Source: a virus
IMG/VR virus record: IMGVR_UViG_3300045836_000083
Coordinates: 62-64,061 of that record
Length of the DNA: 64,000 nt
Direction: 5' to 3' (one strand)
This document shows, piece by piece, positions 19,251 to 55,000 of the stretch; within the stretch, counting starts at the first letter, position 1; the number at the start of each line of letters is the position of its first letter. The notes under the pieces are model-generated. The model saw nothing but the letters and a program-made list of their open reading frames with translations. It was not told the origin of the DNA and ran no database searches. Made by a program: the position numbers and the translations under genes.

Positions 19251-20669
19251 ATGATTATTTTAGATAAGGTTACAATGATTTGTGCAGACTGTTATAATCA
19301 TGGATTAGCAATAGCAGCATTAAAAAAAAGTTTATCACAAGTTACGCCAGCAAGAACAATTTTTTTTACAGACAAACCTTTTCATCTACCAGGAATAGAA
19401 ACTATAATTATTGAACCAATTCGCTCCAAAAGAGAATATTCAAGGTTTATAATAAAGGAACTTCACAAGTATGTCGAAACTGAGTTTATCCTTATAGTTC
19501 AAGGGGATGGGTATGTACTCGATGCTAATCAATGGTCGGAAGAATTTTTAAAATATGACGCTATCGGTGCCCCTTGGCCTTATGACCATGATAGAAGAGT
19601 AGGAAACGGGGGAGCAGCAATAAGGAGCCAAAAATTACAAAAAATATTAGGTACTGATGAATTAATAGATGTAGTGCATCCGGAAGATCAATCTGTTTCA
19701 ATTATATACAAGTTTTATTTAGAAGAAAAATATGGTATTAAATTCGCTCCCGAAGAACTGGCATCTAAATTTTCCTTTGAATTAATAGAACCAACGTCCC
19801 CTACATTTGCCTTTCATAGTTTTCATTGGCCGCCTTATCGGAAAACAGTAGTTATATCAAGACACGCTAGCTTGGGAGATGTAATCATGTGTGAGCCAGT
19901 TTTACACCATTTTTATTTAAAAGGATATAGAGTAGTACTCGATACACTTCCACAATTTTATGAACTATTTAGAAACCATTATTTTCCTGTAGAGTATTAC
20001 GAACACTTTAATAAAAAGGTAAAACATGAAGTTATAAATCTGAATATGTCATATGAGTCCGATCCCCAAAAACTTCATTTAAAAGCATATTATGAATTTG
20101 CTGGTGTACCAGAAGATGAACAAGTAATACGAAATCCAAAATTAAACTATCAAGTAGAGGCAAACTCAAAGCTATTTAATAAATACGCTGTAATTCATAT
20201 TGATAAACGTCCCGATGGGCATAGAGACTGTAACGGGATTAATTGGAAAGAAATAGTAGAATTATTAAATCAAAAAGGATATACGGCTATCCAAATAGGA
20301 AAGGGAGAACATGAAAATACCGGTGCTATTGAAATGAAAACTGTTACCCAGGATTTATTATGCTATCTTATTGCAGGTTGTGATCTATTTATCGGTATTG
20401 ATAGTGGGCCGTCAAATATTGCATTAGCAACCGGTAGAAAAATGATAACATTTCATGGCTCCGTAAATCCAGATTATATTTATCCAGAAACTAATAACGT
20501 TTATCCAAGGAGTAACCATTATGGGAAAGTAAAACCATGTAATACTCCTTTTTGCTGGCATAATGCAATAGGATGTGAAGGAATGAAATGTGTAGTAAAT
20601 GAAAAAAATCCTCCTTGTGCCATCTATTCAACCGAATCTTTAATATATAAAATACTTCACTTGGAGTAA
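19251..20669 (+). CDS. Two-domain glycosyltransferase: DUF5672-like N-domain fused to a GT9 (heptosyltransferase-like) GT-B domain
   Basis: N-half: IVQGDGY...YDAIGAPW...VGNGG...RSQKL...PED. C-half: SLGDVIMCEPVL...DLFIGIDSGPSNIALATG. Confidence 0.85.
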   Translation: MIILDKVTMICADCYNHGLAIAALKKSLSQVTPARTIFFTDKPFHLPGIETIIIEPIRSKREYSRFIIKELHKYVETEFILIVQGDGYVLDANQWSEEFLKYDAIGAPWPYDHDRRVGNGGAAIRSQKLQKILGTDELIDVVHPEDQSVSIIYKFYLEEKYGIKFAPEELASKFSFELIEPTSPTFAFHSFHWPPYRKTVVISRHASLGDVIMCEPVLHHFYLKGYRVVLDTLPQFYELFRNHYFPVEYYEHFNKKVKHEVINLNMSYESDPQKLHLKAYYEFAGVPEDEQVIRNPKLNYQVEANSKLFNKYAVIHIDKRPDGHRDCNGINWKEIVELLNQKGYTAIQIGKGEHENTGAIEMKTVTQDLLCYLIAGCDLFIGIDSGPSNIALATGRKMITFHGSVNPDYIYPETNNVYPRSNHYGKVKPCNTPFCWHNAIGCEGMKCVVNEKNPPCAIYSTESLIYKILHLE

Positions 20670-20674
20670 ATTCA

Positions 20675-21319
20675 ATGAGAGAACTAACCGATGCAGAATT
20701 AATGGTAGCTACGGAAGAAGAAATAAACTTCTATAATAAATGCATAGAGGGGTTGCCTTCTATAAATGGCTTAAATGGTGATGGCCTTGGTGAAAATGGG
20801 GAGCCATTGGTATACGGTTCAGGGCCACACATCGTCAAGCATTTTATTGAAACCGTAAAAATAGTTCAGCCAAAACGAATATTTGAAATTGGATTCAATT
20901 TGGGCTATTCCGCTGCTATATGGATGGAGGTGAGTGAAGCGGAAGTTTGTAGTTGCGATATAAGCGAAAGAGAGGAAACCATTAAAGCCGCTAGATTCTT
21001 GGAGCATAAATATAGGTTTCATGATCGGTTTACATTTAATCATAGGTATGATTTAGACGATGAGAACGGTGGCGTAAATCCGTTCCATGAATTTTATTTC
21101 GATCTTGCTTTTATTGATGGCGGTCATGATACTTCAAGCATAATAAAGGATATTGTGCTATGTAAAAAATGGAGGATACCATTTCTTTTGTTTGACGACT
21201 GGTATCCGCGTTTTGCAGACACTCAAATAGCGGTAGCACAATTCCCTGAACTAGAACTAGTAAAAGATATGAATAATCTCAGACTTTATAAAGTAAACCA
21301 TGGGAGTAACAAGGTATAA
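20675..21319 (+). CDS. Class I SAM-dependent methyltransferase (Methyltransf_24-like)
   Basis: FEIGFNLGYSA, DLAFIDGGH and FDDW. Confidence 0.85.
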   Translation: MRELTDAELMVATEEEINFYNKCIEGLPSINGLNGDGLGENGEPLVYGSGPHIVKHFIETVKIVQPKRIFEIGFNLGYSAAIWMEVSEAEVCSCDISEREETIKAARFLEHKYRFHDRFTFNHRYDLDDENGGVNPFHEFYFDLAFIDGGHDTSSIIKDIVLCKKWRIPFLLFDDWYPRFADTQIAVAQFPELELVKDMNNLRLYKVNHGSNKV

Positions 21320-21569
21320 GAAAATAGTAGAATGCGAATGCGGGTGTAATTATGGTAGCCCATGCGGCAGAAAGATCGCTTATTTATTCTGTTACAATCG
21401 CTCTGTAGATATTGGATCACTATACATAAAAGATCATGCAGAAAAAGAGGAAAGTAAATACCAGCATATTAAAAGCATGGGCGATAACGAAATATCTGCA
21501 TTAATTGAAGTATTAACAGCAAACGATACAATTGAAGAAATTACGGATGAAGAACGAAAATTAATATAA
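21300..21569 (+). CDS. Hypothetical protein
   Basis: From the ORF track; Cys cluster CECGC..C. Confidence 0.55.
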   Translation: MGVTRYKKIVECECGCNYGSPCGRKIAYLFCYNRSVDIGSLYIKDHAEKEESKYQHIKSMGDNEISALIEVLTANDTIEEITDEERKLI

Positions 21570-21583
21570 TTAACTTAAAATCA

Positions 21584-22249
21584 ATGACAACTGAACAAAA
21601 AATAGAAGCTATTCAATTGGCTATTAAAAAAGCAAACAATCTTGAATCTAAAATGGATGATGTGGCGTGGTCAGTGCCGGCGCTATCTTCTTTGCGTATA
21701 CGGCATTTAATGAATAACCTGGGGGCAATATCAACAAGGTATATGGAACACGGCACACACAAAGGGGGGCTTTTTTGTTCTGTTTTAAGGAATAATCCTA
21801 ATATTGAGATTGCCTATTGGGGGGACAGTTTTGCTTCGGATAAAATCACAGGCGAAAATGTGGAAGAACAATTCGAGATAAACTATTTAAAATGCATAGA
21901 GGGAACGGATGTTCTTATCCTTGGTGCCGTAGATGATACCTTCAATTTATACCCTAATTTCGGGGATGGGGTTGATTTATATTGCTTTGATGCAGATCAT
22001 TCATATGAAAGCCAGAGAAAGGCTATGAGCCATTTTTTGCCATCAATGGCAAGCGTCTTTGTTGTGTGTGTTGACGATTGGCAATATGGTGATGTTAAGC
22101 AAGGAACCTTGGATGGTATAGCGGACAGCAAGTGTGAGGTGTTGTTTCATCAGGAATTATTAAATTCAGAACCGTATAATGAAAATGAACATCGGAATGA
22201 TGAATATTGGCGCGGGTTTGCAATTTTCTTATTAAGAAAACCAGAATAA
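21584..22249 (+). CDS. Class I SAM-dependent methyltransferase (Methyltransf_24-like), second
   Basis: MEHGTHKGG, DLYCFDADHSY and CVDDW. Confidence 0.8.
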   Translation: MTTEQKIEAIQLAIKKANNLESKMDDVAWSVPALSSLRIRHLMNNLGAISTRYMEHGTHKGGLFCSVLRNNPNIEIAYWGDSFASDKITGENVEEQFEINYLKCIEGTDVLILGAVDDTFNLYPNFGDGVDLYCFDADHSYESQRKAMSHFLPSMASVFVVCVDDWQYGDVKQGTLDGIADSKCEVLFHQELLNSEPYNENEHRNDEYWRGFAIFLLRKPE

Positions 22250-22752
22250 TGGAAATTATTATTACCTCTGAACTGTATGGTAGTCATAAGGTTTATTATG
22301 ACGATGAAGATCATAATTTAGTGAGTCAATTCAATTGGCATATTGCAAAGGGGAAGAGGGATGTTTTTTATGTAAGGGCAAGAGTGCCAAATAAATTAAG
22401 GGGGAAATTTGGCTTTAACTCAATTCGGATGCATAGGTTGATTATGGGGGCGAATGAAGAGCAGGTGGTAGATCATATTGATCATGACGGTTGCAATAAT
22501 AAAAAAAGCAATTTACGGTTTGTGTCAAGCAAAGAAAGCATGGCAAACACAAGAAAACATTCAGATGGCCTGACCGGTTTCAAGGGTGTTACTTTTCAAA
22601 AGAAGAAAGGTTTATATCATGCCAGGATAAGGGTGGATGGCAAATTAATATCACTTGGTAGAAGTAAAAATCCTATAATAGCAGCCGAGAAATATAACAA
22701 GGCCGCCTTAAAGTATTTTGGTGAATTTGCTCATTTAAATGCTATACCATAA
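22249..22752 (+). CDS. HNH-AP2 homing endonuclease (likely start ATG 22249, coupled to the upstream TAA)
   Basis: RMHRLIM...VDHIDHDGCNNKKSNLR followed by an AP2 domain (FKGV...YHARI...AAEKYNKAALKYFGEFA). Confidence 0.93.
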   Translation: MEIIITSELYGSHKVYYDDEDHNLVSQFNWHIAKGKRDVFYVRARVPNKLRGKFGFNSIRMHRLIMGANEEQVVDHIDHDGCNNKKSNLRFVSSKESMANTRKHSDGLTGFKGVTFQKKKGLYHARIRVDGKLISLGRSKNPIIAAEKYNKAALKYFGEFAHLNAIP

Positions 22753-22953
22753 TGAAGACTATACCCCAATACAAGGGAAAAGACCTGATTGAAAATATTC
22801 ACCTAATGAATGACGACGACTATAATGTTGTGAGAAATAGAGAAATAATATTTCATTCACATGATTTATACGAGGCTCAAAATGTTGCAGCAAAAGAAAA
22901 GGGCGTTATTTTCGGGAAGGGGATTATATATTTTTTCAGCATAATCAATTGTA

Positions 22954-23706
22954 ATGAATAGAACATTAGGCGGTAGCCTTTTTATACGGAATGGAGAAAA
23001 GTTTGACTTTTGCTATAAAGAGGCAATACGATGCTTGCTTGAATTTTGCGATAGAGTAGCGGTATGTGTAGTCCCTACCGATGACAATACTGCATCAGGT
23101 GTGTACGATACCCTTGTTGGTAGAGGAATTATAAGATATGTTTCAAATATAGAGTGGGAACATATGCAGTTTCATGGCAAGCATCGACTTTCTATTTTTA
23201 CTAACTACGCCATAGAAATGCTGGACACAGACTATGTATTCAACTTGCAAGGCGACGAGATAGTAGACCCTAGCAGTTATGAATGGATTCGCAGGGCAAT
23301 ACAAGAGGGCCAAGAAGGCTACTTATGTAGCCGGGTGAATCTATGGAGTAGCCCCTACACTCAACTTAACGTGCCACACGCTCGTAAACCATGTAGCACC
23401 GAGATCGTAAGACTTGCCAAAACGTGTTATAGGGCTTATGACGACGCTGAAAGCATCGCGGCACCAGTTGATAGCAAATTCTTGGATAAGATCAAGATAT
23501 GGCATATGGGCTTTGTGCGTAAAAGAGAAGTGCACCCGGCTAAGATCAGGGAAATGCAAAGTAATATTTTCAGGTGTGGGGTTGACGAAAAGCTAACTGG
23601 CATGGAGGTATTTGATTCAACTAAATGGTTCAGCCCCGATGATCTTATACCTATTCAGGGTGAATTGCCTCCACTAATTCAAAAATGGGCAAAAGAAAGA
23701 GAGTAA
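22954..23706 (+). CDS. GT2-like (GT-A fold) glycosyltransferase
   Basis: N-terminal SLFIRNGE...CDRVAV, DYVFNLQGDE (DxDE variant), and IWHMGF. Confidence 0.8.
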   Translation: MNRTLGGSLFIRNGEKFDFCYKEAIRCLLEFCDRVAVCVVPTDDNTASGVYDTLVGRGIIRYVSNIEWEHMQFHGKHRLSIFTNYAIEMLDTDYVFNLQGDEIVDPSSYEWIRRAIQEGQEGYLCSRVNLWSSPYTQLNVPHARKPCSTEIVRLAKTCYRAYDDAESIAAPVDSKFLDKIKIWHMGFVRKREVHPAKIREMQSNIFRCGVDEKLTGMEVFDSTKWFSPDDLIPIQGELPPLIQKWAKERE

Positions 23707-23722
23707 CTATAACGTTTTAGTT
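23705..23722. promoter_or_regulatory. Palindromic motif copy 1 (CTAyAACGTTkTAG family)
   Basis: AACTATAACGTTTTAGTT. Confidence 0.55.
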
Positions 23723-23735
23723 CCACGTGGAAACA
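23719..23735. promoter_or_regulatory. parS-like palindrome
   Basis: AGTTCCACGTGGAAACA, with a perfect 12-bp core TTCCACGTGGAA, versus parS TGTTYCACGTGRAACA. Confidence 0.45.
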
Positions 23736-23739
23736 AATA

Positions 23740-23766
23740 ACCCCTGATTTTTAAAACATCAGGGGT
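23740..23766. terminator. Hairpin between convergent genes
   Basis: ACCCCTGAT (23740-48) pairs with ATCAGGGGT (23758-66). Confidence 0.7.
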
Positions 23767-23797
23767 ATGCAAAAACTAACCCATTAAGACACAGAGT

Positions 23798-24067
23798 TTA
23801 TGCACCGTTGCTTACTAACTGACTAGTGGTGCTGTCCGTATAAAATTTAATAGGGTTGGCTGAAACACCAGAGGCTGATTGCTCAATTATAGAGTTCATA
23901 ATTACTCCATTTGAGGTAATACCAAGAGGTGCGGGATAAAATTTTAATTGAGCTACATTGAGAAATGTATTTGCTCTACCGTTGGTTGCTCCAGGAAGGT
24001 CGCGTAAACCAAATCCTTTATCGTAGCCATAAATTGATGCTACAATACGTGGTGCTGTTAAGGCCAT
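23798..24067 (-). CDS. Small Ser/Thr/Gly-rich protein, the only leftward gene between 9.4 and 59 kb
   Basis: Clean ATG after an A-rich leader, with its own terminator at 23740-66. Composition resembles the small structural-region proteins at 31594 and 31884. Confidence 0.7.
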   Translation of the reverse strand: MALTAPRIVASIYGYDKGFGLRDLPGATNGRANTFLNVAQLKFYPAPLGITSNGVIMNSIIEQSASGVSANPIKFYTDSTTSQLVSNGA

Positions 24068-24152
24068 AACTCATTAATTTTTAGTTATTAATAAAACTTT
24101 TTTGTCCCATTACGGGATTTCTGTAATATAAAAATAAACAAATAACTAATTG

Positions 24153-24166
24153 CTACAACGTTTTAG
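24153..24166. promoter_or_regulatory. Palindromic motif copy 2
   Basis: CTACAACGTTTTAG, 5 nt before the ATG at 24172. Confidence 0.6.
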
Positions 24167-24171
24167 TTTTT

Positions 24172-24984
24172 ATGGGTCTGATTAGCGTAAAACATAGTAT
24201 GCCGGGGGGCGATTTGGTAAGCCTGCTTCCGTCCTTAAAACATCTATATGATACAACCGGTAATAAATCCGTCATATATCAACGGGTGAACTTATCATAT
24301 GCAGATTTTGGGGGCGCTTACTTGGGGGCGACTTATTCCATAAAGGATGAAAATAAAATGCCGGTATCAATGAATAGTGCAGTTTTTGAAGCACTGAAAC
24401 CTTTATTGTTATATCAATCTTACATCGAGGATTTCAAAGAATGGGGGACAGAAGAAGTGGACTACGATATGGATTTACTTCGCTCTATGGAAACAACAAT
24501 GCCAATGGGCAATATTCAACGATACCCTGGTTATGTATTCCCTGAAATGCAATGTAATTTAAGCGAGCAAAGTGTTTTCTTGCCTAATAAATTCAACAAT
24601 GAAGCATTTGGGAAAATCTTAATAAATAGGACTGAGCGGTATAACAATATGTTTATAAGCTATACATTCCTAAAAAAATATAAGGATGAAGTATTATTTA
24701 TTGGGTTGCCCCATGAACACGAAATATTCTGCAAGCAAAACAAATTGGATATCCAACACTTATATTTGGGAAACTTCTTAGAAATAGCTATCGCATTGGA
24801 AAGTTGTAAGGTATTCATTGGGAATCAAAGTATGTGTTTTCAAATAGCTGAGAATCTTAAAATACCTAGAATTTTAGAAGTATGCAAGCAGATTCCAAAT
24901 GTTATCGGTAATGGCCCCTATTTCTATGATTTCCTTTATCAAAAAGGATTAGAATGCTGGACGGATAAATTATATAATAAATAG
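24172..24984 (+). CDS. GT9-like (GT-B fold) glycosyltransferase
   Basis: PGGDLVSLLPSL and ALESCKVFIGNQSMCFQIAENLKIPRILEV. Confidence 0.75.
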   Translation: MGLISVKHSMPGGDLVSLLPSLKHLYDTTGNKSVIYQRVNLSYADFGGAYLGATYSIKDENKMPVSMNSAVFEALKPLLLYQSYIEDFKEWGTEEVDYDMDLLRSMETTMPMGNIQRYPGYVFPEMQCNLSEQSVFLPNKFNNEAFGKILINRTERYNNMFISYTFLKKYKDEVLFIGLPHEHEIFCKQNKLDIQHLYLGNFLEIAIALESCKVFIGNQSMCFQIAENLKIPRILEVCKQIPNVIGNGPYFYDFLYQKGLECWTDKLYNK

Positions 24985-25010: not shown

Positions 25011-25514
25011 ATGGCTGTCAAAATAAAGACATCAAAAAACAAAGGCCCGATAGAATATCCTGATGATCATAAACCAGGGATCAGAGTGCCGCTCAATGGC
25101 TCATGTTGTTTAACATGCGAATATTACAAGGGGAGTGATCTCTGTAGTAACGAATATTTCAAAAAGTGGAATGGTTCTGAAAAGCTACCTTATCCAGCTG
25201 AGGAATACTGTTCTGATTGGTATGAACAAAAATGATAAATAATGACAATCTTAGAAAAAATAAATCAATTGCATCCTAATGGTGGCTTTGTTGGTGGGCT
25301 AACAAGTTTAATTGTAGGGCCAGTAGGAATTGGATTTCAGGTATATCATAGTAGTGATGCTAAAAGTCAAATATGGTTTAAAGAAAATGATGCAATTCCA
25401 ATAACCAATATAAAAGATGGGAAGGTATTTATTCGCCCATTTTTAAATGAAATCCCTGTATCTATTGATGGTAAATTTAAAGGGCTAAAATATTCAATTA
25501 AGAGCCATGAATAG
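25011..25514 (+). CDS. Two small genes: Cys-rich 25011..25235 and 25242..25514
   Basis: From the ORF track; CCLTC...C...YCSDW pattern. Confidence 0.65.
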
Positions 25515-28957: not shown

Positions 28958-28995
28958 CTAAATCGTTGTAGATCAATTAAAAAATCTTACATTTG
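28958..28995 (+). promoter_or_regulatory. Portal promoter with motif copy 3 over its -33 element
   Basis: CTAAATCGTTGTAG (28958-71) contains TTG at 28966-68; then N19 and TACATTTG (28988-95). Confidence 0.65.
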
Positions 28996-31593: not shown

Positions 31594-32237
31594 ATGGCTA
31601 CAATAAATTGTACAAACCGAGGAGCTTCTCAAGCTATTAAAGGATCAAGCGTTGAAATTATACTTAATGGAGCAGAATCTTTAAGCGTATTGCCGGTGTT
31701 AGCCGTAGGACAATTAGCTACCGTTAGCAGCAATGGTGCGACAGGGAGGATAGACTTCGTTGATACATTGGGACATCTATTTCGGGTTAAGCCAACGCAA
31801 CCAAATTTACAATTTAATTCAGGAACAACCAATACATTGAACGTCAATGAATTGATAACAATCACTTATTAACATATTACAAAATGGTAAGTAAGGTAAC
31901 TGAATATTCATTTTCAAATAATAAGTTAGTCATTGATATAGAAATGGCTAGGACTATTTCTATTCAAATAATTGGCGGGAGTGGTACTCGTTCACTTCAA
32001 GGCACCAATGATGGAGGTGCAGTAACAGGATCTACTATTAATAACGCAGGCGATGCAACAAATTTTAGTACTATTCAGGCCGTAAAATTATCCGATGGGA
32101 CATCGGTAACGTCTATTACTGATGCCGGGCTTTATAAAATTGATCCTGTAGCTTTTCAATATCTTCAAATAGGAGATGGTTCAACAGCCGCCGCAACAAA
32201 AATATTAGTTTATAGGACTTTTGGAACTGGATTATAA
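31594..32237 (+). CDS. Two small beta-rich putative virion (decoration) proteins, 31594..31872 and 31884..32237
   Basis: Gly/Ser/Thr-rich, located between portal and scaffold. Confidence 0.55.
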
Positions 32238-32245
32238 TTTTTTTA

Positions 32246-32268
32246 TATTTTTGCTACAACGTTGTAGC
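32246..32268 (+). promoter_or_regulatory. Capsid operon promoter followed by perfect palindrome (motif copy 4)
   Basis: TATTTTTG (32246-53) overlaps GCTACAACGTTGTAGC (32253-68). Confidence 0.7.
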
Positions 32269-36637: not shown

Positions 36638-37281
36638 TGATAAGAGGTGCATTTTTGGAATCCATTTTAATGCAGATATATGGCGAGAAAATAACAGATG
36701 ATGCTGAAATTACCTATAACCTGGTAAATCTATATTGTCAGGAAGGAATTGCAGTAGCGGCACAAGCATCCTATAAAACTGCTATACAATTAGATGGGGT
36801 AGGATATATTAATAGTGGTTTTTATAGTACCTTTTCTGGATTGCCTATAGTTCAAGATAACACTGATAATCTATGTTATAAGTTTGTACTTCCAGAAATT
36901 CCAGTAGGTATTGCCGCAAATATGGGGGTGGCTGAGGTAAGATTTAAAGGTTCAGATGGTTTTACTTCTTTCCCAGGTATCCCGTTAAGCATGAATCAAT
37001 GGTCGTATTTTGATAGTATGCCTCCGATTGCTAATAAGGTTCTTTATTTACCAGAAGGGAAAACAGTAAGAGCCAAAACACCACTAATATTAAGTCTATA
37101 TACAGCAACGGTAAAAATAATTAGTGGAGGAGATACAACCGATCTAAACTCTGAGTTAAACGTTCCTCCCGATTCTATTCCTGTTATTCGTCAATATATT
37201 ATAGAAAAACTTTTAGCCCAACGTTCAATATCAACTGATGATGTAAATAATGGAAAAGATGATAATTTAAAACAATTATGA
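36637..37281 (+). CDS. Tail ring/adaptor protein
   Basis: Size, position and translational coupling. Confidence 0.55.
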   Translation: MIRGAFLESILMQIYGEKITDDAEITYNLVNLYCQEGIAVAAQASYKTAIQLDGVGYINSGFYSTFSGLPIVQDNTDNLCYKFVLPEIPVGIAANMGVAEVRFKGSDGFTSFPGIPLSMNQWSYFDSMPPIANKVLYLPEGKTVRAKTPLILSLYTATVKIISGGDTTDLNSELNVPPDSIPVIRQYIIEKLLAQRSISTDDVNNGKDDNLKQL

Positions 37282-37547
37282 TAAAACCTATAAGAGATAA
37301 TATTGTAGTACAAGCATTCCCATCAGATGAAATTTCAGATGGCGGTATTTTTGTTTCAGAAGCACATAGAGAAGTAAGTTGCAAAATGAAGGTAATTGCA
37401 GTAGGAAATGGAACTAAAAAAGAGCCCATGAAACTAAAACAGGGAGATGTCGTATTTAGAGTAAAGGGAATGGGAACAGAAATAGAAATTAATAAACAGA
37501 CCTATTTTATAGTTAAACAATCGTGGTTAATTGCTCAATTAAATTAA
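37278..37547 (+). CDS. groES: GroES co-chaperonin
   Basis: MIKPIRDNIVV...SDGGIFV (mobile loop)...KVIAVGNG...LKQGDVV...GTEIEI...YFIVKQSWLIA. Confidence 0.92.
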   Translation: MIKPIRDNIVVQAFPSDEISDGGIFVSEAHREVSCKMKVIAVGNGTKKEPMKLKQGDVVFRVKGMGTEIEINKQTYFIVKQSWLIAQLN

Positions 37548-43376: not shown

Positions 43377-44843
43377 ATGGCAGTAGCTACTATAAATCCT
43401 TGGGCAGCGGGAGCTGTTGTATTTGATCAGCGTCCATTTTTACAGTTCTATGAGCAACAAATGGCTCGTAAACAAGCAAAAGATGATGCTTTAGATAATT
43501 ATTTCCGTGACCTTAATAAAAATGTTACATCTGCCGGCATGCGTTCACAAGATGTATCTAGTTTATTGAAAAAGCAACAGGATGCACAGCAGTATTATTT
43601 TCAAAATAAGGCTCAGATATTAAATCCAAAATTAGATAATGGAGCAGCTTATTCCGAATATCAGGCACGGCATCAAGACATGCTAGGGTTAATTGATCAA
43701 AGCAAAGAAGCTGCTAAATCTATGGATGAGATAGGTAAAATGAAGTTAAACCCTCAGATGTCATACATATTTGAAGACCCAAAATTCATGGATCAATTAC
43801 GATCCCATGAATTACCAATAGGTGATCCAAATAGGAAGGGTATAACTTTAGCTTCATTAACTGTTCCAGATAAACCAGTTGATATTAAAGAATGGGATGC
43901 GTATAATAAATATTTAACAGGAGGAATACCACATGATAAAATACCTGGAGAAACAAAAAGTATAGGTAATTTCAAAACAAGCACCCCTATTTATCAGCAA
44001 TACAGTCCTGAAAATCAAAAAGTAATTGCCGAGCATGCAATGAATGCTTACGAAAGTGATAGAAGATGGCGTACAGAAGCTAACAAAACATTTCAGGATA
44101 TTATGCATGATCCTATGAAATATGATCAGTATAATAAAATGTATAAATCTATATACGGGAAAGATATTGATACTCCTAAAGAAGCATGGGCAGCAAAAGG
44201 GATTATAGATAATAATATGAAGGCGGTGGAATACAAAGAAGGAGAAGACTTTGTGGCTAAGGAAAGATTCAAAGATGCTTTAAGTAGAGCAAGCCAAGAA
44301 GAATTGATAAAATTCAGGAAAAATATTGATCCTAATGATATGGAATTGAATAATCAATGGATTGATCGGTATTTACAAAACAGATTGCAAACCGCAATGT
44401 CAGATGAAGCCAATTATAGAAAAGTTTATACACCACATACAACAAAGTACGGATATGAAATAAGCATGGATCCGGTTTTGGCAAAGTCATTTTCAAGGGG
44501 AGGCAGTGAACCAGATAGACTATATGTAACAGATGATGGACAAAAAATATGGCCTATCTTCTATAAATACGAAAAAGACCCTAAAACAAAACAAACCATT
44601 CTTGTTAAAAATGATAAAGGCGATCCAGTGATAGATGAAGATATTAGTAAACCTTTAGAAATGGATCAAGCTAAATTAGCAATGGGATATAGAGGAGAAA
44701 CAAAAAAACAGTTAGGCAAGACTATGAGTTCCAAAACTAAATCGACACAACCTAAATATCCTTTGCCGGCAGGTAAACCTGCAACAGTAAAACAAAACGG
44801 ATATACATATCATTGGAATAGCGAAATAGGATCGTATGAGTAG
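43377..44843 (+). CDS. Internal virion/ejection protein
   Basis: 488-aa helical protein between ejection-type genes. Confidence 0.55.
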   Translation: MAVATINPWAAGAVVFDQRPFLQFYEQQMARKQAKDDALDNYFRDLNKNVTSAGMRSQDVSSLLKKQQDAQQYYFQNKAQILNPKLDNGAAYSEYQARHQDMLGLIDQSKEAAKSMDEIGKMKLNPQMSYIFEDPKFMDQLRSHELPIGDPNRKGITLASLTVPDKPVDIKEWDAYNKYLTGGIPHDKIPGETKSIGNFKTSTPIYQQYSPENQKVIAEHAMNAYESDRRWRTEANKTFQDIMHDPMKYDQYNKMYKSIYGKDIDTPKEAWAAKGIIDNNMKAVEYKEGEDFVAKERFKDALSRASQEELIKFRKNIDPNDMELNNQWIDRYLQNRLQTAMSDEANYRKVYTPHTTKYGYEISMDPVLAKSFSRGGSEPDRLYVTDDGQKIWPIFYKYEKDPKTKQTILVKNDKGDPVIDEDISKPLEMDQAKLAMGYRGETKKQLGKTMSSKTKSTQPKYPLPAGKPATVKQNGYTYHWNSEIGSYE

Positions 44844-47800
44844 TAAAACATTTCCATCTAGTGGCACAAAGCCAAAATTTAACCCAGATGCAGATTATGA
44901 AGCTGTAGCAGATGCTCCTACGCCGAAAAGTAATAAACCCGCTTTTAATCCAAATGCTCATTTTGAACCAGTTCATGAAGAAAGAACAGAGCCGGTTGCA
45001 CAACCGGCTTTTCATGTTGAATTATCAACCCCTACATTTAAATCAGCACCTGCACAAACAGGGCCTAATACCTTTCAATATAATGCACCCGCAGAAGCAG
45101 GCGACATTATTAAACTAGGAGGTAAAGCTAGAGTAGCACAAGAAAATCTACATAAAGAATTATCTACCAATAAACAAGCATTAGGCAGAGTTATAGTTAA
45201 TGATAGGATAAAGCAACAAGAAAAAAATAGACAAGCGGGCATAGTCGGCCCACAATTAACTGATCCATTATTTATAACTGATGACGATTTAAATAAGGTA
45301 AATACCGAAGCTACAACTAATAGAGATAGAGCTAACCAAGTACTTAGTGCTGCCATGCAAATAAATCCTGAAAAAGCTCAGGAAATACAAAAGAATGCTT
45401 ACATGGTGGATGCCTTTAATAATGCTGCTCAGGATGTGAACGGAAATGAAAGGGTTAATAAAATAGAAGAAAACGCAAAGGCTATTAGCAAAGGAGAATT
45501 GAATTATGACCATCACAACCAAATATTAAGTAAGCCGGAAGGATTCTTTGGAAGTTTAGTTTCTGCAAGAAATGAATTGAATAGATTATCTGATGCCTAC
45601 GATTATACCAAAAAAATGGAAGATGGAGGAAATGAAGCAGGTATAATAATGGAATTGAATAATAGAATAAAACGTGATCCAGATGAACCTGTTAAAATGC
45701 CAACAGGGTTATTGGGACATTTAGGCGCTAATATTGGAGGAATGCCCATTAAGGGATTAGCCGCCGGTACTGTAGCAGGTATTGGTACCTCACTGTTAGG
45801 TAATCCAGAAGCATCCGAAGCTGCGTTTAATATGGCAAGTGCAGGGGTAAATGCTAATGATATGTACAAAATAGGATATCAAAATGCATTAGAGCAAAAC
45901 TATGCCCTATTAAAACGGGATCATCCAGATATGCCAGATTATACCGCTTTTAAACAAGCTCAGGATTTAGCAGGTAAACAAGCGGTGGTTGATGCTGCAT
46001 CGGCAGCAGCAATGCAATATTTAGGAGGCAAAGCCGGTTTTGGGGCAAGTAAACAATTGGCAAAGGGAATATCGAGTGGCTTATCACAAGTAAAAGATGA
46101 ATTGGGTAAAAAAGCATTTGAATCATTAGGGGTAGGTGCTATAGGGGCTGGCGGCCAAACTATAAAAAATCTGATGGCTCAAAATGCAGGATTGAATGTA
46201 CCCACATCCGAAGGCGCAATGGATCAATTTACTACAGGATTATTAATGACAGGTGCAATGTCAATGTTAGGATTAGGTAAAGATATTTTGAAACCATTCA
46301 CAAAAGCCAAATTAGCAAGTGGTATAGCTAAATTACCTGATAATGTAGTTGAACAAGGATTAAATAAAGTAGAGCAAGCAGGTCATTTAACACCAGAACA
46401 GTTACAGAATGTAAAAGATATAATTAGCGAACAAAAAGCATTAGAAAATTCAATACCAGAAACGCTGCCGGAAAGCGATAGACAAAAAATAGGTGACAAG
46501 ATAAAGGAGCGTTCACAACTAAAACAGCAATTAGAACAAGTAGATGAAGCGTATCATCCTGAATTAAAAGATAAAATAAAAAAACTAAATGAAGATATAT
46601 TAAGCATATCGAAAGGTTCAGAACGAGGTGAATTGCAACAGTTAGTTCATGGCGAAATTAACAAAGGGAATGTGCAAGGATATTTAACCGATATCCTACG
46701 AAATGCCAACGAAAAGGAATTAGAGCAATATATGAAGGAAATTTCCGAGCAAGCACATGATCCAGCATCCGAAGAAAATACAATTAAAACCTTCGGAGAA
46801 AAAATAGTTAATAAGGCTAAAGAATTATATCCGAAAAAAGAATCAGCCGTTTCAGTAATACAACCTGGGGAAATAAAACAACCTGAAACTATTACAATTG
46901 CACCACGCGAAAGGCCATCAGATATAAAATCTACTGAAAATGTATCAGTAATAATGCCTAATGAGGCAGGAGCCGGTAAGGTAGTTCCCGACAATATTGG
47001 TCATGTGGAAGTTAGCGAACATGGGGAAGATACCAAAACGGAAGCTGGTCAAGAAAATGGTACTCAACCTTCCAAACTTTCCGAAGATGGAATTAAGGAA
47101 GCTAAAGAACTGGGCAATTATTTAGCAGAAAATAATAAAACAAAAATAATTACCAGTGAAGTTCAGCGGGCGCAAGAAACGGCCCATACTGCTGCTGCGG
47201 AAGTCAAAAATGCAACTGGTAAAGAAATACCAGTAGAAACTAACCCTTTGTTAAATACATGGAATATTGGTGAATATGACGGTAAGCCAGAAGGATCATT
47301 CAATGAAAAAGAATGGATAGATAAACCCAATGAAGCCCCAAAAGGCGGGGAAAGTTTTAATGACTTTAAAGGTCGTATGGAGCAAGCATATCAATATGTA
47401 AAATCATTACCAGAAGATAATCACGTCGTTTCTCATTCAAAAGTAATGAGAGCATTAGAAGCCTTAAAACAAACAGATGGTAAATGGACAGACGAAACAA
47501 CAAAGGAATTTTTAAACAATAAAGAATTACCCAATGCCGTTCCAATCCAAAGCACAAATGGCCTGGATGTTCGCCAACAAACCGGCAATGGCGAAACGAT
47601 GGGCGAAGGAAACACCCAACCCGAAATCATTACCGGAACACAAGGAGGAAGCACCGAAGAAAAAAGTAATGATCAAGGTGAGGAAAACAAAATAGAAAAT
47701 CTTACCATTGATGATGCATACGGATTACCATTTATTGATGAACCGGGAGATAAAAGAACAGGGGTTAAAAATAAAATTTCTGACCAAATAAGATTTGAGA

Positions 47801-50421
47801 GAAAACTACCGGAAGTGCCAATTATAAAAATGGGCTCGGATGTAGAAAAATTACAATTAGGGAAGGAGTTAGTAGATAGTGGTAAAATAAATCCATTAGA
47901 TATTGTAAATAGAGTATTGAATGCGCCAGAAGGGGAACATGGAGTACAACCGAATGAAGTATTAGCATTACAATATTATATGCATCAATTAAATAAACAT
48001 GAGACTAATTTAAGGGAACAAAAAGCTAGGGCGGAAACTCCCATAGAAGAAGCTGAAATAAATGGGCAATTGCAACAATTGTCTGATGAAATAGACGCTG
48101 CTACTAGAGCAAATAAAATAAGTGGGAATGCATGGCATTACGTGGGAGATTTTAGACAAATAGAGGTAGATACTGGTTATAATCCTCACAGAGACGTAGA
48201 TTTAATTAGAGACGCGTATGGAGGAGAAATTCCTTCGGAAGTAAAAGCTCGGTTGGATAAAGTATTGAAAGAAAGAGATGACGCATTAAATAAATTAGCT
48301 AAACTTCAAATAGAACAGACTAAGCAAGCCGCGGATGAAACTATAAAAAAGGAAAGTCCGCCAAAGAATCCTAAAAAATCAGCTACTGACTTTAAGAATG
48401 AACGTACAGAAATAAAAAAATCCATTTCAGATAAATTAAAGAAAGGAAGAACAGGTGAAAGTGGGTTGACTGCCGTTCCATTACCATTTGCAAAAGAACT
48501 TATTTCGATAACGCCTGAAATATTCCAGTTAATAAAAAGCTATGCAGAAGAAGGGGTGCAGAAAACAGAGGAAATAATTAACCGTTTACACGAAGTATTA
48601 AAAGATGAATTGGATGGTATTCAAAAATCAGATATTGTTAACTTATTGGCTGGTAAGTATAAGGCACAAGGTGAAGAAGTTGACCCGATAGCACAACGAA
48701 TAAGAGATTATAGAACGGAAGCTAATATTTGGACTAAAATTGCTGCCGCGCTTAAAATGGAGGAAGATACGCCTAAGAAAAAAGAGGAAAAGAATAAAAA
48801 ATTACAGGATTTACGAGATCGGTTAAATGACATACGGAAGCGCAATAAGGAAGCAGTTAAAGAAATACAATCCATTCTGACACCGGAAATGGCTAAAAAA
48901 GAATTAACGGATGCCGAAAAGGAACTAAATAGGTTAGAAAAGTTAAGAAAGTCAACAGAAACCAAATTTGCTAATAAAAAATATCTACAACCAGAAACTA
49001 AAAAAAGTACAGCTCTTAATACTGCTATAGTAAAAGAAAAACAACGTATAGCGAATGCCCAATATAATATTAGAGTAGAAAAAAGAAAGGCATTTGAATC
49101 TCAAAAGAACTTTTACCAAAAAGCATTAATGTGGACAGGCAGAGCTATAAGACTTTCTATATTGTCAGGGTATAATGTATTAGGTAAATTGGCTGCTGCT
49201 GCTACTATAGGTGGTGCAGGAAAGCGTATTCCAGAACAAGCAATCGGATTTATTTATGGTCAAGCATTCAGAGGAATAGCCGAGAAAGCGCCAATTGAAG
49301 GATTTACAAATGCAAAGGCAGAAGCTAAATTTTATAAAGAGTTCTTTAATCCAAAAACCTTTGCAAAAAATGCATGGCAAATATTAAAAACTGGAGAATC
49401 ACCACTAAGCAAACAATTTTCAAGTGGACAATATGAACATATTCCCGGCTTATATTTGCCTACTGATTTGCACCAGATTATTAAAGACCCATTGAAACGT
49501 GCTACTTATGAAGCATCATTGAAAAATGCTATGGTGTGGGCTGAAAGACAAGGGTTAGATATTAACGATGACTTGGTAATGCAGTCATTGCAAACAGCGG
49601 CTTACAAACGGGCCCAGTATGAAATATTCCAAGAATCAAACGTTTTGTCGCGCAAATTTGGTGAATGGAAAAGCAATATGGAGAAAAAGGGTAATTGGGG
49701 AGCGACAGGTAAATTTTTGGCTGATTTCATGGTGCCGGTAAGTACAGTGCCTACTAATATTGCCCGGCGTGTTGTAACTACCTCACCATTAGGACTAATA
49801 CGCGGGGGAGTTAAAGTTGTTGAAGCCTACAGAAAAGGAATAGAAAATCTCACCCCAGAAGAGGCCGATTCAGTAATGAAGCAGCTAAAACAGGGTACAT
49901 TGGGTACGGCTTTATGGTTAATAGGTTGGTATGGTGCTTCTTATTTTGGTGGTTTATATAGTAAATTCAACCCAAATAAAAGCCGTGATCAGGGCGAATT
50001 AAAATCGGATGAAATGTCGGTAGGAGGGAAAATGATTCCAAAGCCAATACAACACGCGTTACCATTAGAAGTGATTCAATTTGCGGCAACAGCCCGACAC
50101 GTTTATGATCATTATAGTGATAAAGGTGCATCCACAGCGGAAACAATTGAGAAAGCAGGCTTAGCAAGCATAGGGGGATTAACTGAACAAATTCCAATCC
50201 TTGAATCAGCAGTGCACGCTATTGGCGCAACTACCGATCCGTACGAAGCTAAAAAACTAGAAGATGACGCAAAACGTAGGTTTGAACCACAAATTTTGAA
50301 AGAAACAGGAATAATAGGAAAAGAATCTGGTGGTAGCGGAGGTGGTGCCGGCGCTACCGGAACAGTAAGCAAACCAACTAGAGAACATAGACCTACAAGA
50401 ACACATAAAACTCATAGATAA
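44836..50421 (+). CDS. Giant ejection/cargo protein (1861 aa) with an internal histidine-phosphatase-fold domain
   Basis: Gly-rich hydrophobic segments and coiled-coils. At about 47000-47480: EHGE...LSEDG...SEVQRAQETA...GES...VSH. Confidence 0.75.
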   Translation: MSSKTFPSSGTKPKFNPDADYEAVADAPTPKSNKPAFNPNAHFEPVHEERTEPVAQPAFHVELSTPTFKSAPAQTGPNTFQYNAPAEAGDIIKLGGKARVAQENLHKELSTNKQALGRVIVNDRIKQQEKNRQAGIVGPQLTDPLFITDDDLNKVNTEATTNRDRANQVLSAAMQINPEKAQEIQKNAYMVDAFNNAAQDVNGNERVNKIEENAKAISKGELNYDHHNQILSKPEGFFGSLVSARNELNRLSDAYDYTKKMEDGGNEAGIIMELNNRIKRDPDEPVKMPTGLLGHLGANIGGMPIKGLAAGTVAGIGTSLLGNPEASEAAFNMASAGVNANDMYKIGYQNALEQNYALLKRDHPDMPDYTAFKQAQDLAGKQAVVDAASAAAMQYLGGKAGFGASKQLAKGISSGLSQVKDELGKKAFESLGVGAIGAGGQTIKNLMAQNAGLNVPTSEGAMDQFTTGLLMTGAMSMLGLGKDILKPFTKAKLASGIAKLPDNVVEQGLNKVEQAGHLTPEQLQNVKDIISEQKALENSIPETLPESDRQKIGDKIKERSQLKQQLEQVDEAYHPELKDKIKKLNEDILSISKGSERGELQQLVHGEINKGNVQGYLTDILRNANEKELEQYMKEISEQAHDPASEENTIKTFGEKIVNKAKELYPKKESAVSVIQPGEIKQPETITIAPRERPSDIKSTENVSVIMPNEAGAGKVVPDNIGHVEVSEHGEDTKTEAGQENGTQPSKLSEDGIKEAKELGNYLAENNKTKIITSEVQRAQETAHTAAAEVKNATGKEIPVETNPLLNTWNIGEYDGKPEGSFNEKEWIDKPNEAPKGGESFNDFKGRMEQAYQYVKSLPEDNHVVSHSKVMRALEALKQTDGKWTDETTKEFLNNKELPNAVPIQSTNGLDVRQQTGNGETMGEGNTQPEIITGTQGGSTEEKSNDQGEENKIENLTIDDAYGLPFIDEPGDKRTGVKNKISDQIRFERKLPEVPIIKMGSDVEKLQLGKELVDSGKINPLDIVNRVLNAPEGEHGVQPNEVLALQYYMHQLNKHETNLREQKARAETPIEEAEINGQLQQLSDEIDAATRANKISGNAWHYVGDFRQIEVDTGYNPHRDVDLIRDAYGGEIPSEVKARLDKVLKERDDALNKLAKLQIEQTKQAADETIKKESPPKNPKKSATDFKNERTEIKKSISDKLKKGRTGESGLTAVPLPFAKELISITPEIFQLIKSYAEEGVQKTEEIINRLHEVLKDELDGIQKSDIVNLLAGKYKAQGEEVDPIAQRIRDYRTEANIWTKIAAALKMEEDTPKKKEEKNKKLQDLRDRLNDIRKRNKEAVKEIQSILTPEMAKKELTDAEKELNRLEKLRKSTETKFANKKYLQPETKKSTALNTAIVKEKQRIANAQYNIRVEKRKAFESQKNFYQKALMWTGRAIRLSILSGYNVLGKLAAAATIGGAGKRIPEQAIGFIYGQAFRGIAEKAPIEGFTNAKAEAKFYKEFFNPKTFAKNAWQILKTGESPLSKQFSSGQYEHIPGLYLPTDLHQIIKDPLKRATYEASLKNAMVWAERQGLDINDDLVMQSLQTAAYKRAQYEIFQESNVLSRKFGEWKSNMEKKGNWGATGKFLADFMVPVSTVPTNIARRVVTTSPLGLIRGGVKVVEAYRKGIENLTPEEADSVMKQLKQGTLGTALWLIGWYGASYFGGLYSKFNPNKSRDQGELKSDEMSVGGKMIPKPIQHALPLEVIQFAATARHVYDHYSDKGASTAETIEKAGLASIGGLTEQIPILESAVHAIGATTDPYEAKKLEDDAKRRFEPQILKETGIIGKESGGSGGGAGATGTVSKPTREHRPTRTHKTHR

Positions 50422-52065: not shown

Positions 52066-55000
52066 ATGAAACGTTTATTAACCATATTGTTTTTAATAAT
52101 AAGTATCGTTTGTAATGCACAATTACCATTTAATCCGGTTGTAACTCAAACCTCTACAGGTAATTTTAAATGGGGATGGCCCCGAGCAGATTCAGGATTT
52201 ATAAATGCTGTAAGAGATACATTTAATGCCAGGTATTCGGGCTCTCAAATAATTAGAATACAAAACGGCGATACCTCTTTATGGTTTGGAGCAGGTGGGC
52301 ATTTATGGTTCAAAAATTTGCAGGGGAAAGATACCAATTCATTAAGTACAAGAATAAACTTTAAATTAAATACTATAGATACCACTAATAAATGGATTGG
52401 GTTGGGTCGGAGAATACAGGATACGATGTATAGAATAAATGATTCTACAATAGGCTACACAATTAACCAGGTATTACATACCATCCAGATTTTGGGAAGA
52501 TCGCAAGGGGGAGGGGGAGGTTCTGGTACTGTTACCAGCGTGAATATGTCTGTTCCTGCTGCATTAACAGTGAGTGGCGGCCCAATTACTGGAGCAGGTA
52601 CATTTAATTTATCGGGAGCCGGCAACTCAGGGCAATATATAAAAGGCAATGGAACATTAGGAACTACTGATACTTCAATGATTACCAATTTCTATTTGAA
52701 ATCAAGAGGGTTATTATCTGGTAATTCGCCTTTATCATACAATAACATAACTGGCATTTTTAGTATTCAAAATGCTAATACTACAGGTCAAAAAGGTGCG
52801 GCTACGTTTGTTAACGCATCCTTTTCGGATAATGGCAGCGGCTTAATTGATCTGGCTGATGTAGTTACAGGTGGCGTTTGTTCTAATTGCAATGTTACAT
52901 TCGATTCAAAAGGAAGGGCAACTACCTTCACAGATGGGACGGGAGCAAGTGTAAACGCTAGACGTTCAGTAACCAAAGCTACCCTTGATTCTTTACAGCT
53001 TGTTAATGACACTACTTTAAATGTAGCTACAGGGAGAAAATATGATTACCAATTAGATACTACAGGGCGGCGCGCCTATTATGAAGATAAATATGTTATA
53101 GGTAAAAATTATGGTGAAATAAGAGGTTTGCGACTTCCTGATACTTCTTATGTTTTTAGAGCAAATTCCTCTCAAATTGTAGGAGATTATGTATATGACC
53201 CAACGGACGTTACTACCACAGATGATACTGTCGTTACAATTGTTTCAGGGACTTATAGATACAAGAGATATATCCCAGATGGGGTGTATGACCCGCATTG
53301 GTGGGGTGCCAAGGCCAATGGAACATACGATGATACATGGGCAGTTCAACAAGCTATAAACGCAGCAAATAAGTACACGGGCAATAATGGTACTGTTATA
53401 CGATTAACAGGTAATTATAAATTTGACCCATCAAACTTTGTATATAATACAGGCAGGGGAATGGTATTTGAAATAACAGGTAATGTACAGTTATTGAACA
53501 CTTGGCGTATAACAAGAGGGGTGAGTATAATTGGTAAGGGTGGGGCAACAGCGGAAGCATCATTTGCATGGTCGAACATAGCATCGATTCAATATACCGT
53601 GGTAAATACAGGAGCTCCCAAAGCTGCTGTTGAGTTGACATATGGCGGCAATACTTTGAGAAACCTAACCATTGGTAGTTATGGAGGGATAGGAGTTAAA
53701 TTAAATGGAACATTTTTTATACCAGCAGCATTAGCATTGTTGGATAATGTTAGTGCTAGTGTAGGCTCGTATACTGGCAAGCAAACAGGGTTGCTGGTAT
53801 CGGACTGGTTTTGGTTTAAATTGGATAACTGTTCGTTTAGCGTGGATGGCACATCTGCGGCAGGCAGTTCGTCTATAAAGCTGGAAGGTAAAACATATTT
53901 CCCCGACATCAACTTGTGCTATCTGGGCGAATTTAATAATTGCACTGCCCAGGGTAGACCAATTAGAATACAAGCCGGTGACACAGCAGACGCAAGTCTA
54001 AATGTAGGCATTGTAAATATAACTTTTAGAAACTTAACTATAGAAAACATTGCTCCTGATACTGCTGCTATCATGTTAAACAGTACCCGTATTCCCATAG
54101 ATAATATAGTATTTGAGCGTCCAGTAATGGTAGATACTTATAATATGGGATTCTTTATTTATAATTATGGTAATAATACTAGTGGGGTTAAATTACATGA
54201 CGGTGATTTGTTAAGTGGACAATTAAAGAAAATATTCGGAGGTGCTGCTATAGTTAATAAGTATTTCACAAGCACAGCCAAACCAATTAATAATTTTGTT
54301 TTTAACCCAAATTCAAGGCAATTGTACGATGATTTTGGGATTAATGGTTTTACAGATAATATTAATATGAATAGGGGATGGAAACCACCATTAGAACTAC
54401 AGTTGTATGATGGAGGCCAAATTGCACGCAATGCTGCAAGACTAAAAGATTCAGTAATAACTTCGGCATCAGTTGTAACCGAACCCTTCACTGGGTACAA
54501 TGGTGATACGGTAGCAATCAAAGTAACCCCCGACGGGACTAATAGCAACCCTACTATCCAAATAAAACAGTATGAGCAAGTTTGGCATACTGGCGATCAA
54601 ATATATTTCGGCGCATGGGTTAAAAGTGATTACATGGATAGCATCTTTTCAACGGCTTTAAAGGCTCAAATAGATGGTGGATATCTTTGGCAGAATACAT
54701 CTTCATCCACACTTGTTTCGGACATAACTTATATTTCACAACCTAATAATGGATGGAGGTTTTTAATATGTTCAGGGTTAATTGATGCGTCGGCATCAGA
54801 CCATTCCTCACATAAAATGTATTTATATATTAATAGCAACGATACGAATAGAACACACCCATACTATGTTTCTCACGCTTTTGCTTACAAAATAGACAGC
54901 GCAACCGCTATAAACCAAAATGAATTTCTTTCGTGGGTTAAGATGAATGCCGGTGGTCTTTACGCTGTTCCTTCAAAGAGTTATGGGATAAGAGATGATT

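Follow-up and report, generated by a model that had tools for sequence, protein, structure and literature searches.

Protein heptosyltransferases of the BAHT type (TibC and Aah; PDB 4rap and 4rb4; equivalog model TIGR04414) are encoded in adhesin operons. TibC, a soluble, cytoplasmic enzyme that forms a dodecameric ring and carries a β-barrel at its N-terminus, transfers heptose from ADP-heptose directly onto serine residues of a β-helical protein. Enzymes of the same glycosyltransferase (GT) family, GT9, build the inner core of lipopolysaccharide (LPS), where the heptosyltransferases WaaC and WaaF are paired with the GT2 enzymes WaaE, KdtX, and LpsC. Sugars of macrolides are O-methylated by MycE and TylE (PDB 3ssm and 8ia9; Pfam TylF). 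Among viruses, mycobacteriophages (reportedly in work by Freeman et al. in 2023) and chloroviruses are said to glycosylate their virions with soluble, virus-encoded GTs, in some cases with O-methyltransferases, which are encoded near structural genes and use host nucleotide sugars. To our knowledge, glycans on phage particles have been proven in only a few systems, namely mycobacteriophages, chloroviruses, and some archaeal viruses. Here, we compare with these systems a cassette of five enzymes at positions 19251–24984 of a 64,000-nucleotide stretch of viral DNA (the window), which makes up nearly all of a 64.5-kb IMG/VR virus record (IMGVR_UViG_3300045836_000083).

A first-pass annotation of the letters of this stretch had proposed that the interval encodes five enzymes with up to four GT domains and two methyltransferases, which together build a methylated oligosaccharide. 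Pfam searches, fold models, and motifs located all five enzymes in the interval and bore out both counts. We read the cassette as a pathway that may glycosylate a protein of the phage particle stepwise in the cytoplasm, and we put the probability of this reading at roughly 0.45.

The first gene (19251..20669, plus strand) encodes a two-domain glycosyltransferase of 472 amino acids (aa), hereafter the fusion. Pfam recognized DUF5672 (PF18922) at its N-terminus (51.7 bits against a cut-off of 24.4; E = 1e-13) and Glyco_transf_9 (CAZy GT9, PF01075) at its C-terminus (35.1 bits against a cut-off of 22; E = 1.2e-8). In an AF2 model with a pLDDT of 93, residues ~5–192 adopt a GT-A fold and residues ~197–472 a GT-B/GT9 fold. 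When compared by VIA-align, the GT-A domain matched GT6 enzymes, GT8, glycogenin, LH3, and the chlorovirus protein A64R at Z-scores of about 12–13 (11.9 for A64R, PDB 2p72), while the GT9 domain reached 22.3 with TibC, 20.6 with 3tov, an uncharacterized GT9, 20.3 with WaaF, and 19.2 with WaaC. TibC was the top match of the GT9 domain in both aligners (Foldseek, E = 9e-12; VIA-align, rmsd 2.7 over 260 residues).

A profile built from 29 homologues aligned the invariant G209-D210 of the fusion to the catalytic GD of WaaC, and D384-S385-G386 to the DSG/DTG donor motif of WaaF and WaaC; the catalytic Asp of the GD motif and the DSG donor motif of the BAHT enzymes are kept. Four cysteines (Cys430, 435, 447, and 456) are invariant as well; in the alignment, they follow the donor motif and precede the last helix, which makes them, by sequence position, a putative counterpart of the iron finger in the C-lobe of TibC. 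In TibC, this finger (Cys339/342/358/370) keeps the oligomer assembled and touches the β-helix of the substrate (PMC4358343). A word-based search returned 736 homologues of the fusion, and an Atlas cluster of 597 DUF5672/GT9 proteins was 96% viral; a scan of the genomes of 185,579 species with a single pattern from the fusion alignment gave no match. In the literature, we found a single passing mention of DUF5672.

The best-conserved gene of the cassette (22954..23706, plus strand) encodes a GT2-like GT-A glycosyltransferase of 250 aa, which shares 70–84% identity with its nearer relatives. It gave no Pfam match and so does not reach the cut-off of PF00535 (Glycos_transf_2), a domain carried by a few of its relatives and by 15–39% of the members of nearby Atlas clusters. 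Its model (pLDDT 96) shows a GT-A/GT2 fold that aligns with SunS, ThuS, TarP, SpsA, and WaaE/KdtX. An acidic motif of the DxD type, Q99-x-D101-E102, follows β-4 and is invariant in the family, and relatives carry the GT2-type motif DAGS.DGT. The last enzyme (24172..24984, plus strand) is a short GT9-like GT-B glycosyltransferase of 270 aa. It is GT9-like by structure only: Pfam found no match, and its Atlas model matches GT9 clusters at a TM of 0.62–0.69. Its alignment has G13-D14, T154/R156/N159, and K230/R233/E236 as invariant residues, the first pair where GT9 enzymes have their catalytic Asp; in place of the usual D-S/T, it has Q219-S220 (at least 90% conserved), giving a donor motif that reads N-Q-S. 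On the 3' side of this gene lies a Cys-rich open reading frame (ORF) of 74 aa (25011–25235), with 53–84% identity in five related loci (L005, L007, L010, L017, and L029).

Two S-adenosylmethionine (SAM)-dependent methyltransferases are encoded between the fusion and the GT2-like enzyme. The first (20675..21319, plus strand; 214 aa) is a class I enzyme of the cation-dependent O-methyltransferase type, which scored 27.4 bits for Methyltransf_24 (PF13578) against a cut-off of 26.3, with weak matches to cation-dependent O-methyltransferases; a clear orthologue was found in 1 of the ~45 loci compared (L045). A joint profile of this protein and a sister cluster (cluster 9) matched the sugar O-methyltransferases MycE and TylE at 3e-26, a signal that came mainly from the sister cluster. 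The second enzyme (21584..22249, plus strand; 221 aa) scored 23.5 bits for Methyltransf_24, just under the cut-off, and matched phrog_1458 at 8e-18. It is present in 17 related loci in addition to the window (18 cluster members), where its orthologues are annotated with PF13578; a profile search of the PDB with this enzyme returned nothing useful. The likeness to the macrolide enzymes thus belongs to the methyltransferases of related phages, whereas the window's own two reach only Methyltransf_24 and weak CCoAOMT-type matches, and their substrate is not a macrolide.

We fetched 47 related loci before tabulation and analyzed 45 of them by clustering. In 41 of these 45 loci, as in the window, the genes for the fusion, the GT2-like enzyme, and the short GT9 are found together, and therefore the cluster is not a chance assembly. 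The trio adjoins homologues of o226 and o110, the terminase, and the portal, and is conserved about as well as terminase and portal are. Gene order varies: some loci have the short GT9 upstream of the fusion, and others have it downstream of the GT2-like gene. The space between the fusion and the GT2-like gene, where the first methyltransferase sits, is a variable slot that holds Methyltransf_24 or Methyltransf_11 genes, 1–3 GT17 genes, a weak GT2, or a 197-aa family, and, in one further contig, a TylF-type methyltransferase (PF05711). The 197-aa family has no Pfam match, is found in the slot of 17 relatives (for example L002:9421–9996), mostly beside the second methyltransferase, and is absent from the window. 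Three loci share the order of the window (fusion, two tailoring genes of which at least one is of the Methyltransf_24 type, GT2-like gene, minus-strand small gene, short GT9), namely L005 and, in look-ups made after the main tabulation, L053 and L054. A fixed frame around a variable tailoring slot would give this locus the look of one that diversifies a glycan. Combined with the conserved motifs of the four GT domains and the MycE-, TylE-, and TylF-like sister methyltransferases, this slot is the reason why the proposed synthesis of a methylated oligosaccharide is well supported.

The Atlas families of the cassette enzymes are about 96% viral. In megablast and tblastn searches of 50,697 GenBank phages, neither the cluster DNA nor the GT2-like enzyme, the short GT9, the small protein encoded on the minus strand, or the fibre had a homologue; the sole cassette match was that of the DUF5672 half of the fusion to hypothetical proteins of cyanophages. 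Judged by these records, the cassette appears to be carried by no cultured phage. Papers on the GT sets of cyanophages leave their targets open.

The remainder of the window was surveyed with Pfam and PHROG, covering 59 other ORFs plus the 8 largest ORFs. As the first-pass annotation had stated, neither base-modifying enzymes (hydroxymethylase, TET/JBP oxygenase, deazaguanine pathway) nor sugar-nucleotide synthases were found; a C5 DNA methylase was the sole match related to DNA base modification. Nor did the survey turn up an initiating phosphoglycosyl transferase, a flippase, a polymerase, a ligase, or an integrase. Because of the missing integrase, the lineage is apparently virulent. Pfam searches of the fibre and the capsid-region proteins gave no domain that points to an acceptor. 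The terminase is 26% identical to terminases of Flavobacterium and Cellulophaga podoviruses, and a 1308-aa protein showed a weak match to a crAss muzzle protein; the host of this uncultured phage is probably a member of the Bacteroidota.

A candidate acceptor, or virion anchor, is encoded within the cassette itself. On the minus strand (23798..24067), a gene encodes a conserved protein of 89 aa with low charge and an abundance of A, T, G, S, and N, in which Tyr13 is invariant across the family. In about 40 of the 43 loci in which the short GT9 was located, an ORF of the same family (80–97 aa) lies next to it in divergent orientation, and does so in both gene orders. An exhaustive profile search yielded 207 cluster representatives, mostly stand-alone proteins, while several members form the N-terminal domain of longer proteins (200–570 aa). 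One of these long members has a poly-Gly linker, a classic fibre motif, and head-decoration and tail-fibre PHROG matches; two match a 'virion structural protein' PHROG, and one sits inside a GT cassette. Since the domain occurs at the N-terminus of fibre, head-decoration, and structural proteins, the family is best read as a putative anchor-type module of virion surface proteins. The family also occurs in tandem copies, one tandem form ending in a Thr/Pro-rich tail; P0334, P0357, P0324, and P0247 are long or tandem members. A complex prediction for the short GT9 with the 89-aa protein scored 0.00, which speaks neither for nor against binding.

While folds, conserved catalytic motifs, synteny, and variability are observed, we infer the following scheme as to the acceptor, its sugars, and the sequence of steps. 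A GT9-type transferase, either the TibC-like domain of the fusion, the short GT9, or both, would place a first sugar, possibly heptose, on a Ser, Thr, or Tyr of the acceptor, after which the chain would be lengthened by the fusion's GT-A domain and by the WaaE-like GT2 enzyme. The two SAM methyltransferases would O-methylate the sugars, with the sugar donors being supplied by the host. As tailoring genes are swapped among phages, the glycan would differ from phage to phage. As possible acceptors, we consider the 89-aa anchor-type protein, the putative capsid protein (479 aa), small proteins encoded at 31594–32237, and, prior to its export, the leader-bearing fibre.

The cassette enzymes are all predicted from sequence to be soluble, acidic, and leaderless, and no membrane proteins are encoded among them; together with the missing phosphoglycosyl transferase, flippase, polymerase, and ligase, this argues for direct transfer onto the final acceptor. 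A protein is favoured as that acceptor because TibC, which likewise acts on a protein from the cytoplasm, is the best match of the fusion GT9 domain, in which the invariant cysteines may form a similar finger; because a small protein of the virion-anchor type is linked to the short GT9; and because the trio behaves as a core gene set beside terminase and portal in an apparently virulent lineage. Giant viruses, in which LPS is lacking, commonly carry DUF5672 domains, and this favours an acceptor other than LPS. In addition, the N-lobe (acceptor lobe) is neutral to acidic in both GT9 domains, which, in view of what is known of WaaC, would make lipid A bearing Kdo (3-deoxy-D-manno-octulosonate) a poor fit. 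The first-pass annotation had left the acceptor between a virion protein and host LPS. These arguments tip the choice toward the virion protein, while the likeness to WaaE, KdtX, and LpsC keeps LPS alive.

Compared with the mycobacteriophage and chlorovirus pathways, the enzyme families differ (GT9/TibC-like and DUF5672 here), the probable host is Gram-negative, and the cassette precedes the terminase rather than following the capsid gene. We tentatively extend the virion-protein reading to a more specific form, which we hold to be rather doubtful: that this Bacteroidota-phage lineage has the first virion-glycosylation system for phages of Gram-negative hosts, in which a fusion of a TibC-like heptosyltransferase and a GT-A domain decorates a small anchor protein or the pre-Sec fibre with a methylated, heptose-containing oligosaccharide, diversified in the manner of O-antigen clusters.

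Several points weigh against glycosylation of a virion protein. Sequence similarity to the BAHT enzymes is marginal, with the fusion scoring 21.2 bits for TIGR04414 against a cut-off of 200; a GT-A fold takes up its N-terminal 195 residues, in place of a TibC-type β-barrel, and its setting is a phage and not an adhesin operon. The lead of TibC over the LPS heptosyltransferases is small (Z of 22.3 against 20.3 and 19.2). Genes of the ADP-heptose pathway (PfkB and SIS_2) are absent from the window and were not found in five related records, whereas TibC uses ADP-heptose; in one other contig, a PfkB gene lies ~7 kb upstream of the fusion gene. The best Swiss-Prot structural matches of the GT2-like enzyme are the LPS-core enzymes KdtX, LpsC, and WaaE (E of about 1e-9, TM 0.53–0.56). 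The genes from the fusion to the GT2-like enzyme end a tightly packed block that they share with replication genes, not with the structural operon. In one relative, the 89-aa family occupies the same module boundary with no GT nearby, and the linkage to the short GT9 may therefore reflect, in part, a shared divergent promoter at that boundary.

Some of the same points sustain the best-surviving alternative, in which the enzymes remodel a glycolipid of the host envelope on the side of the inner membrane that faces the cytoplasm: the inner core of LPS or lipooligosaccharide, or the lipid-linked precursor of the general O-glycan of Bacteroidota. This could mask receptors or keep progeny from sticking to debris, and could also alter the glycan on an exported fibre; we consider it possible, if on the unlikely side. 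Characterized GT9 enzymes mostly have LPS-core acceptors, WaaF and WaaC match the fusion GT9 domain at Z 19–20, only 2–3 units under TibC, and the TIGR04414 score is far under its cut-off. KdtX, LpsC, and WaaE are of the same size as the GT2-like enzyme, folds and donor-binding motifs are shared, and the pairing of a heptosyltransferase-type with a WaaE-type enzyme mirrors inner-core chemistry. Moreover, the sole fibre (1409 aa, 52066–56295) carries a Sec-type leader ending A|Q and 15 Bacteroidota O-glycosylation sequons of the form D[ST][AILVMT] against 5.6 expected, because of which it may receive the periplasmic O-glycan of the host, including a lipid-linked glycan altered by the phage. The leader and the first ~260–300 residues of the fibre are conserved in 3 of the 5 relatives searched (L049, L050, and L051). 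O-glycans of flavobacterial hosts contain O-methyl sugars.

Against the remodelling of a glycolipid stand the lack of membrane proteins, flippase, ligase, and genes for Kdo or lipid A, the neutral to acidic acceptor lobes, the putative four-Cys finger, and the fused GT-A domain, whose DUF5672 family is present in giant viruses too. The cassette enzymes score far under the cut-offs of the LPS equivalog models, and TibC ranks above the LPS enzymes in both aligners. The setting is viral: the families are about 96% so, and the genes belong to the core set of an apparently virulent lineage. That core behaviour also makes superinfection exclusion, which had been suggested as the purpose of LPS remodelling, a poor fit. 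The related suggestion that the cassette extends glycans already on the fibre is not workable in that form, as soluble, leaderless enzymes could act only before export or on a lipid-linked precursor.

A different soluble acceptor seems improbable, be it a protein of the host, a small molecule, or a free oligosaccharide that arises in the course of infection. All enzymes are cytoplasmic, and the fold of the GT2-like enzyme matches the peptide S-glycosyltransferases SunS and ThuS, but the locus shows no leader-bearing gene resembling a precursor peptide, no exporter, and no positive evidence of such a product, and the constant position beside morphogenesis genes would be left unexplained. Glycosylation of the phage's own DNA bases for restriction evasion, known from other phages in which GT-A and GT-B enzymes act on hydroxymethylated bases, is very hard to credit despite the C5 cytosine methylase, given a survey without hydroxymethylase, TET/JBP oxygenase, or deazaguanine pathway, the absence of the T4 α- and β-glucosyltransferases among the listed fold matches, and the 4–8 GT domains and O-methyltransferases that far exceed the needs of known sugar modifications of DNA. 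A serotype-conversion system of the Gtr type was rejected, as the cassette is without membrane proteins.

Besides the 89-aa minus-strand gene, the first-pass annotation had missed a homing endonuclease, two orphan ORFs, and a hairpin. The homing endonuclease (22207..22752, plus strand; HNH_3/AP2 type, with a phrog_99 match at 2e-33 and a Pfam HNH_3 match), whose true start is likely the ATG at 22249, is a mobile insertion that separates the second methyltransferase from the GT2-like gene; L005 has it at the same site, and most relatives lack it. In L006, L007, L016, L025, and L053, other HNH/NUMOD4 genes are inserted into the cassette at different sites. One orphan ORF (21300..21569, plus strand; 89 aa, Cys-rich) has no homologue in the related loci and is probably not part of the pathway; the other (22752..22961, plus strand; 69 aa) has no homologues.

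The hairpin (23740..23766; 9-bp stem, −14 kcal/mol, z −2.7) lies between two convergent genes and is a probable bidirectional terminator. Given this hairpin and the minus-strand gene, we read the cluster as two transcription units, split after the GT2-like gene, with the short GT9 as the first gene of a unit that runs on to the terminase. A 14-bp palindrome, CTAYAACGTTTTAG, is present at 23707..23720, with further copies at 24153–24166, 28958–28971, and 32254–32267; these four sites lie between genes of the late region, and 7 strand-matches were counted where 1.4 were expected. Two copies flank the minus-strand insert on both sides, that at 24153–24166 ending 5 nt before the start of the short GT9, and the others precede portal and capsid-region genes. 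A scan of the window for sigma-70 promoters and terminators performed no better than on shuffled sequence, as expected for a Bacteroidota phage.

Elsewhere, the window codes for RecA, the C5 DNA methylase, YopX, GroES, a DnaC-like loader, RNase H, and a 3'–5' exonuclease. The GroES-type gene, a Cpn10 match that was assigned by eye to an 89-aa ORF at 37278–37547, is not accompanied by a full-length GroEL in the window. In five relatives, a full-length GroEL (Cpn60, E = 3.5e-48) is encoded directly 3' of the GT cassette (L004:14558–16135, L008:11988–13580, L036:10762–12360, and two more). A histidine phosphatase domain (His_Phos_1, E = 2e-22) forms residues 729–874 of an 1861-aa protein (44836–50421).

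The comparison makes a cassette of 4–8 GT domains a core feature of an abundant lineage of uncultured phages. If its target is a virion protein, TibC-type protein heptosyltransferases would gain a second biological setting and DUF5672 a function, and surface glycans would become a possible factor in the adsorption and stability of these phages and in their escape from host recognition. If the target is instead host LPS or an O-glycan precursor, the cassette would give a virulent phage a novel means of rewriting its host's surface. Being small and soluble, the cassette genes and the candidate acceptors lend themselves to co-expression.

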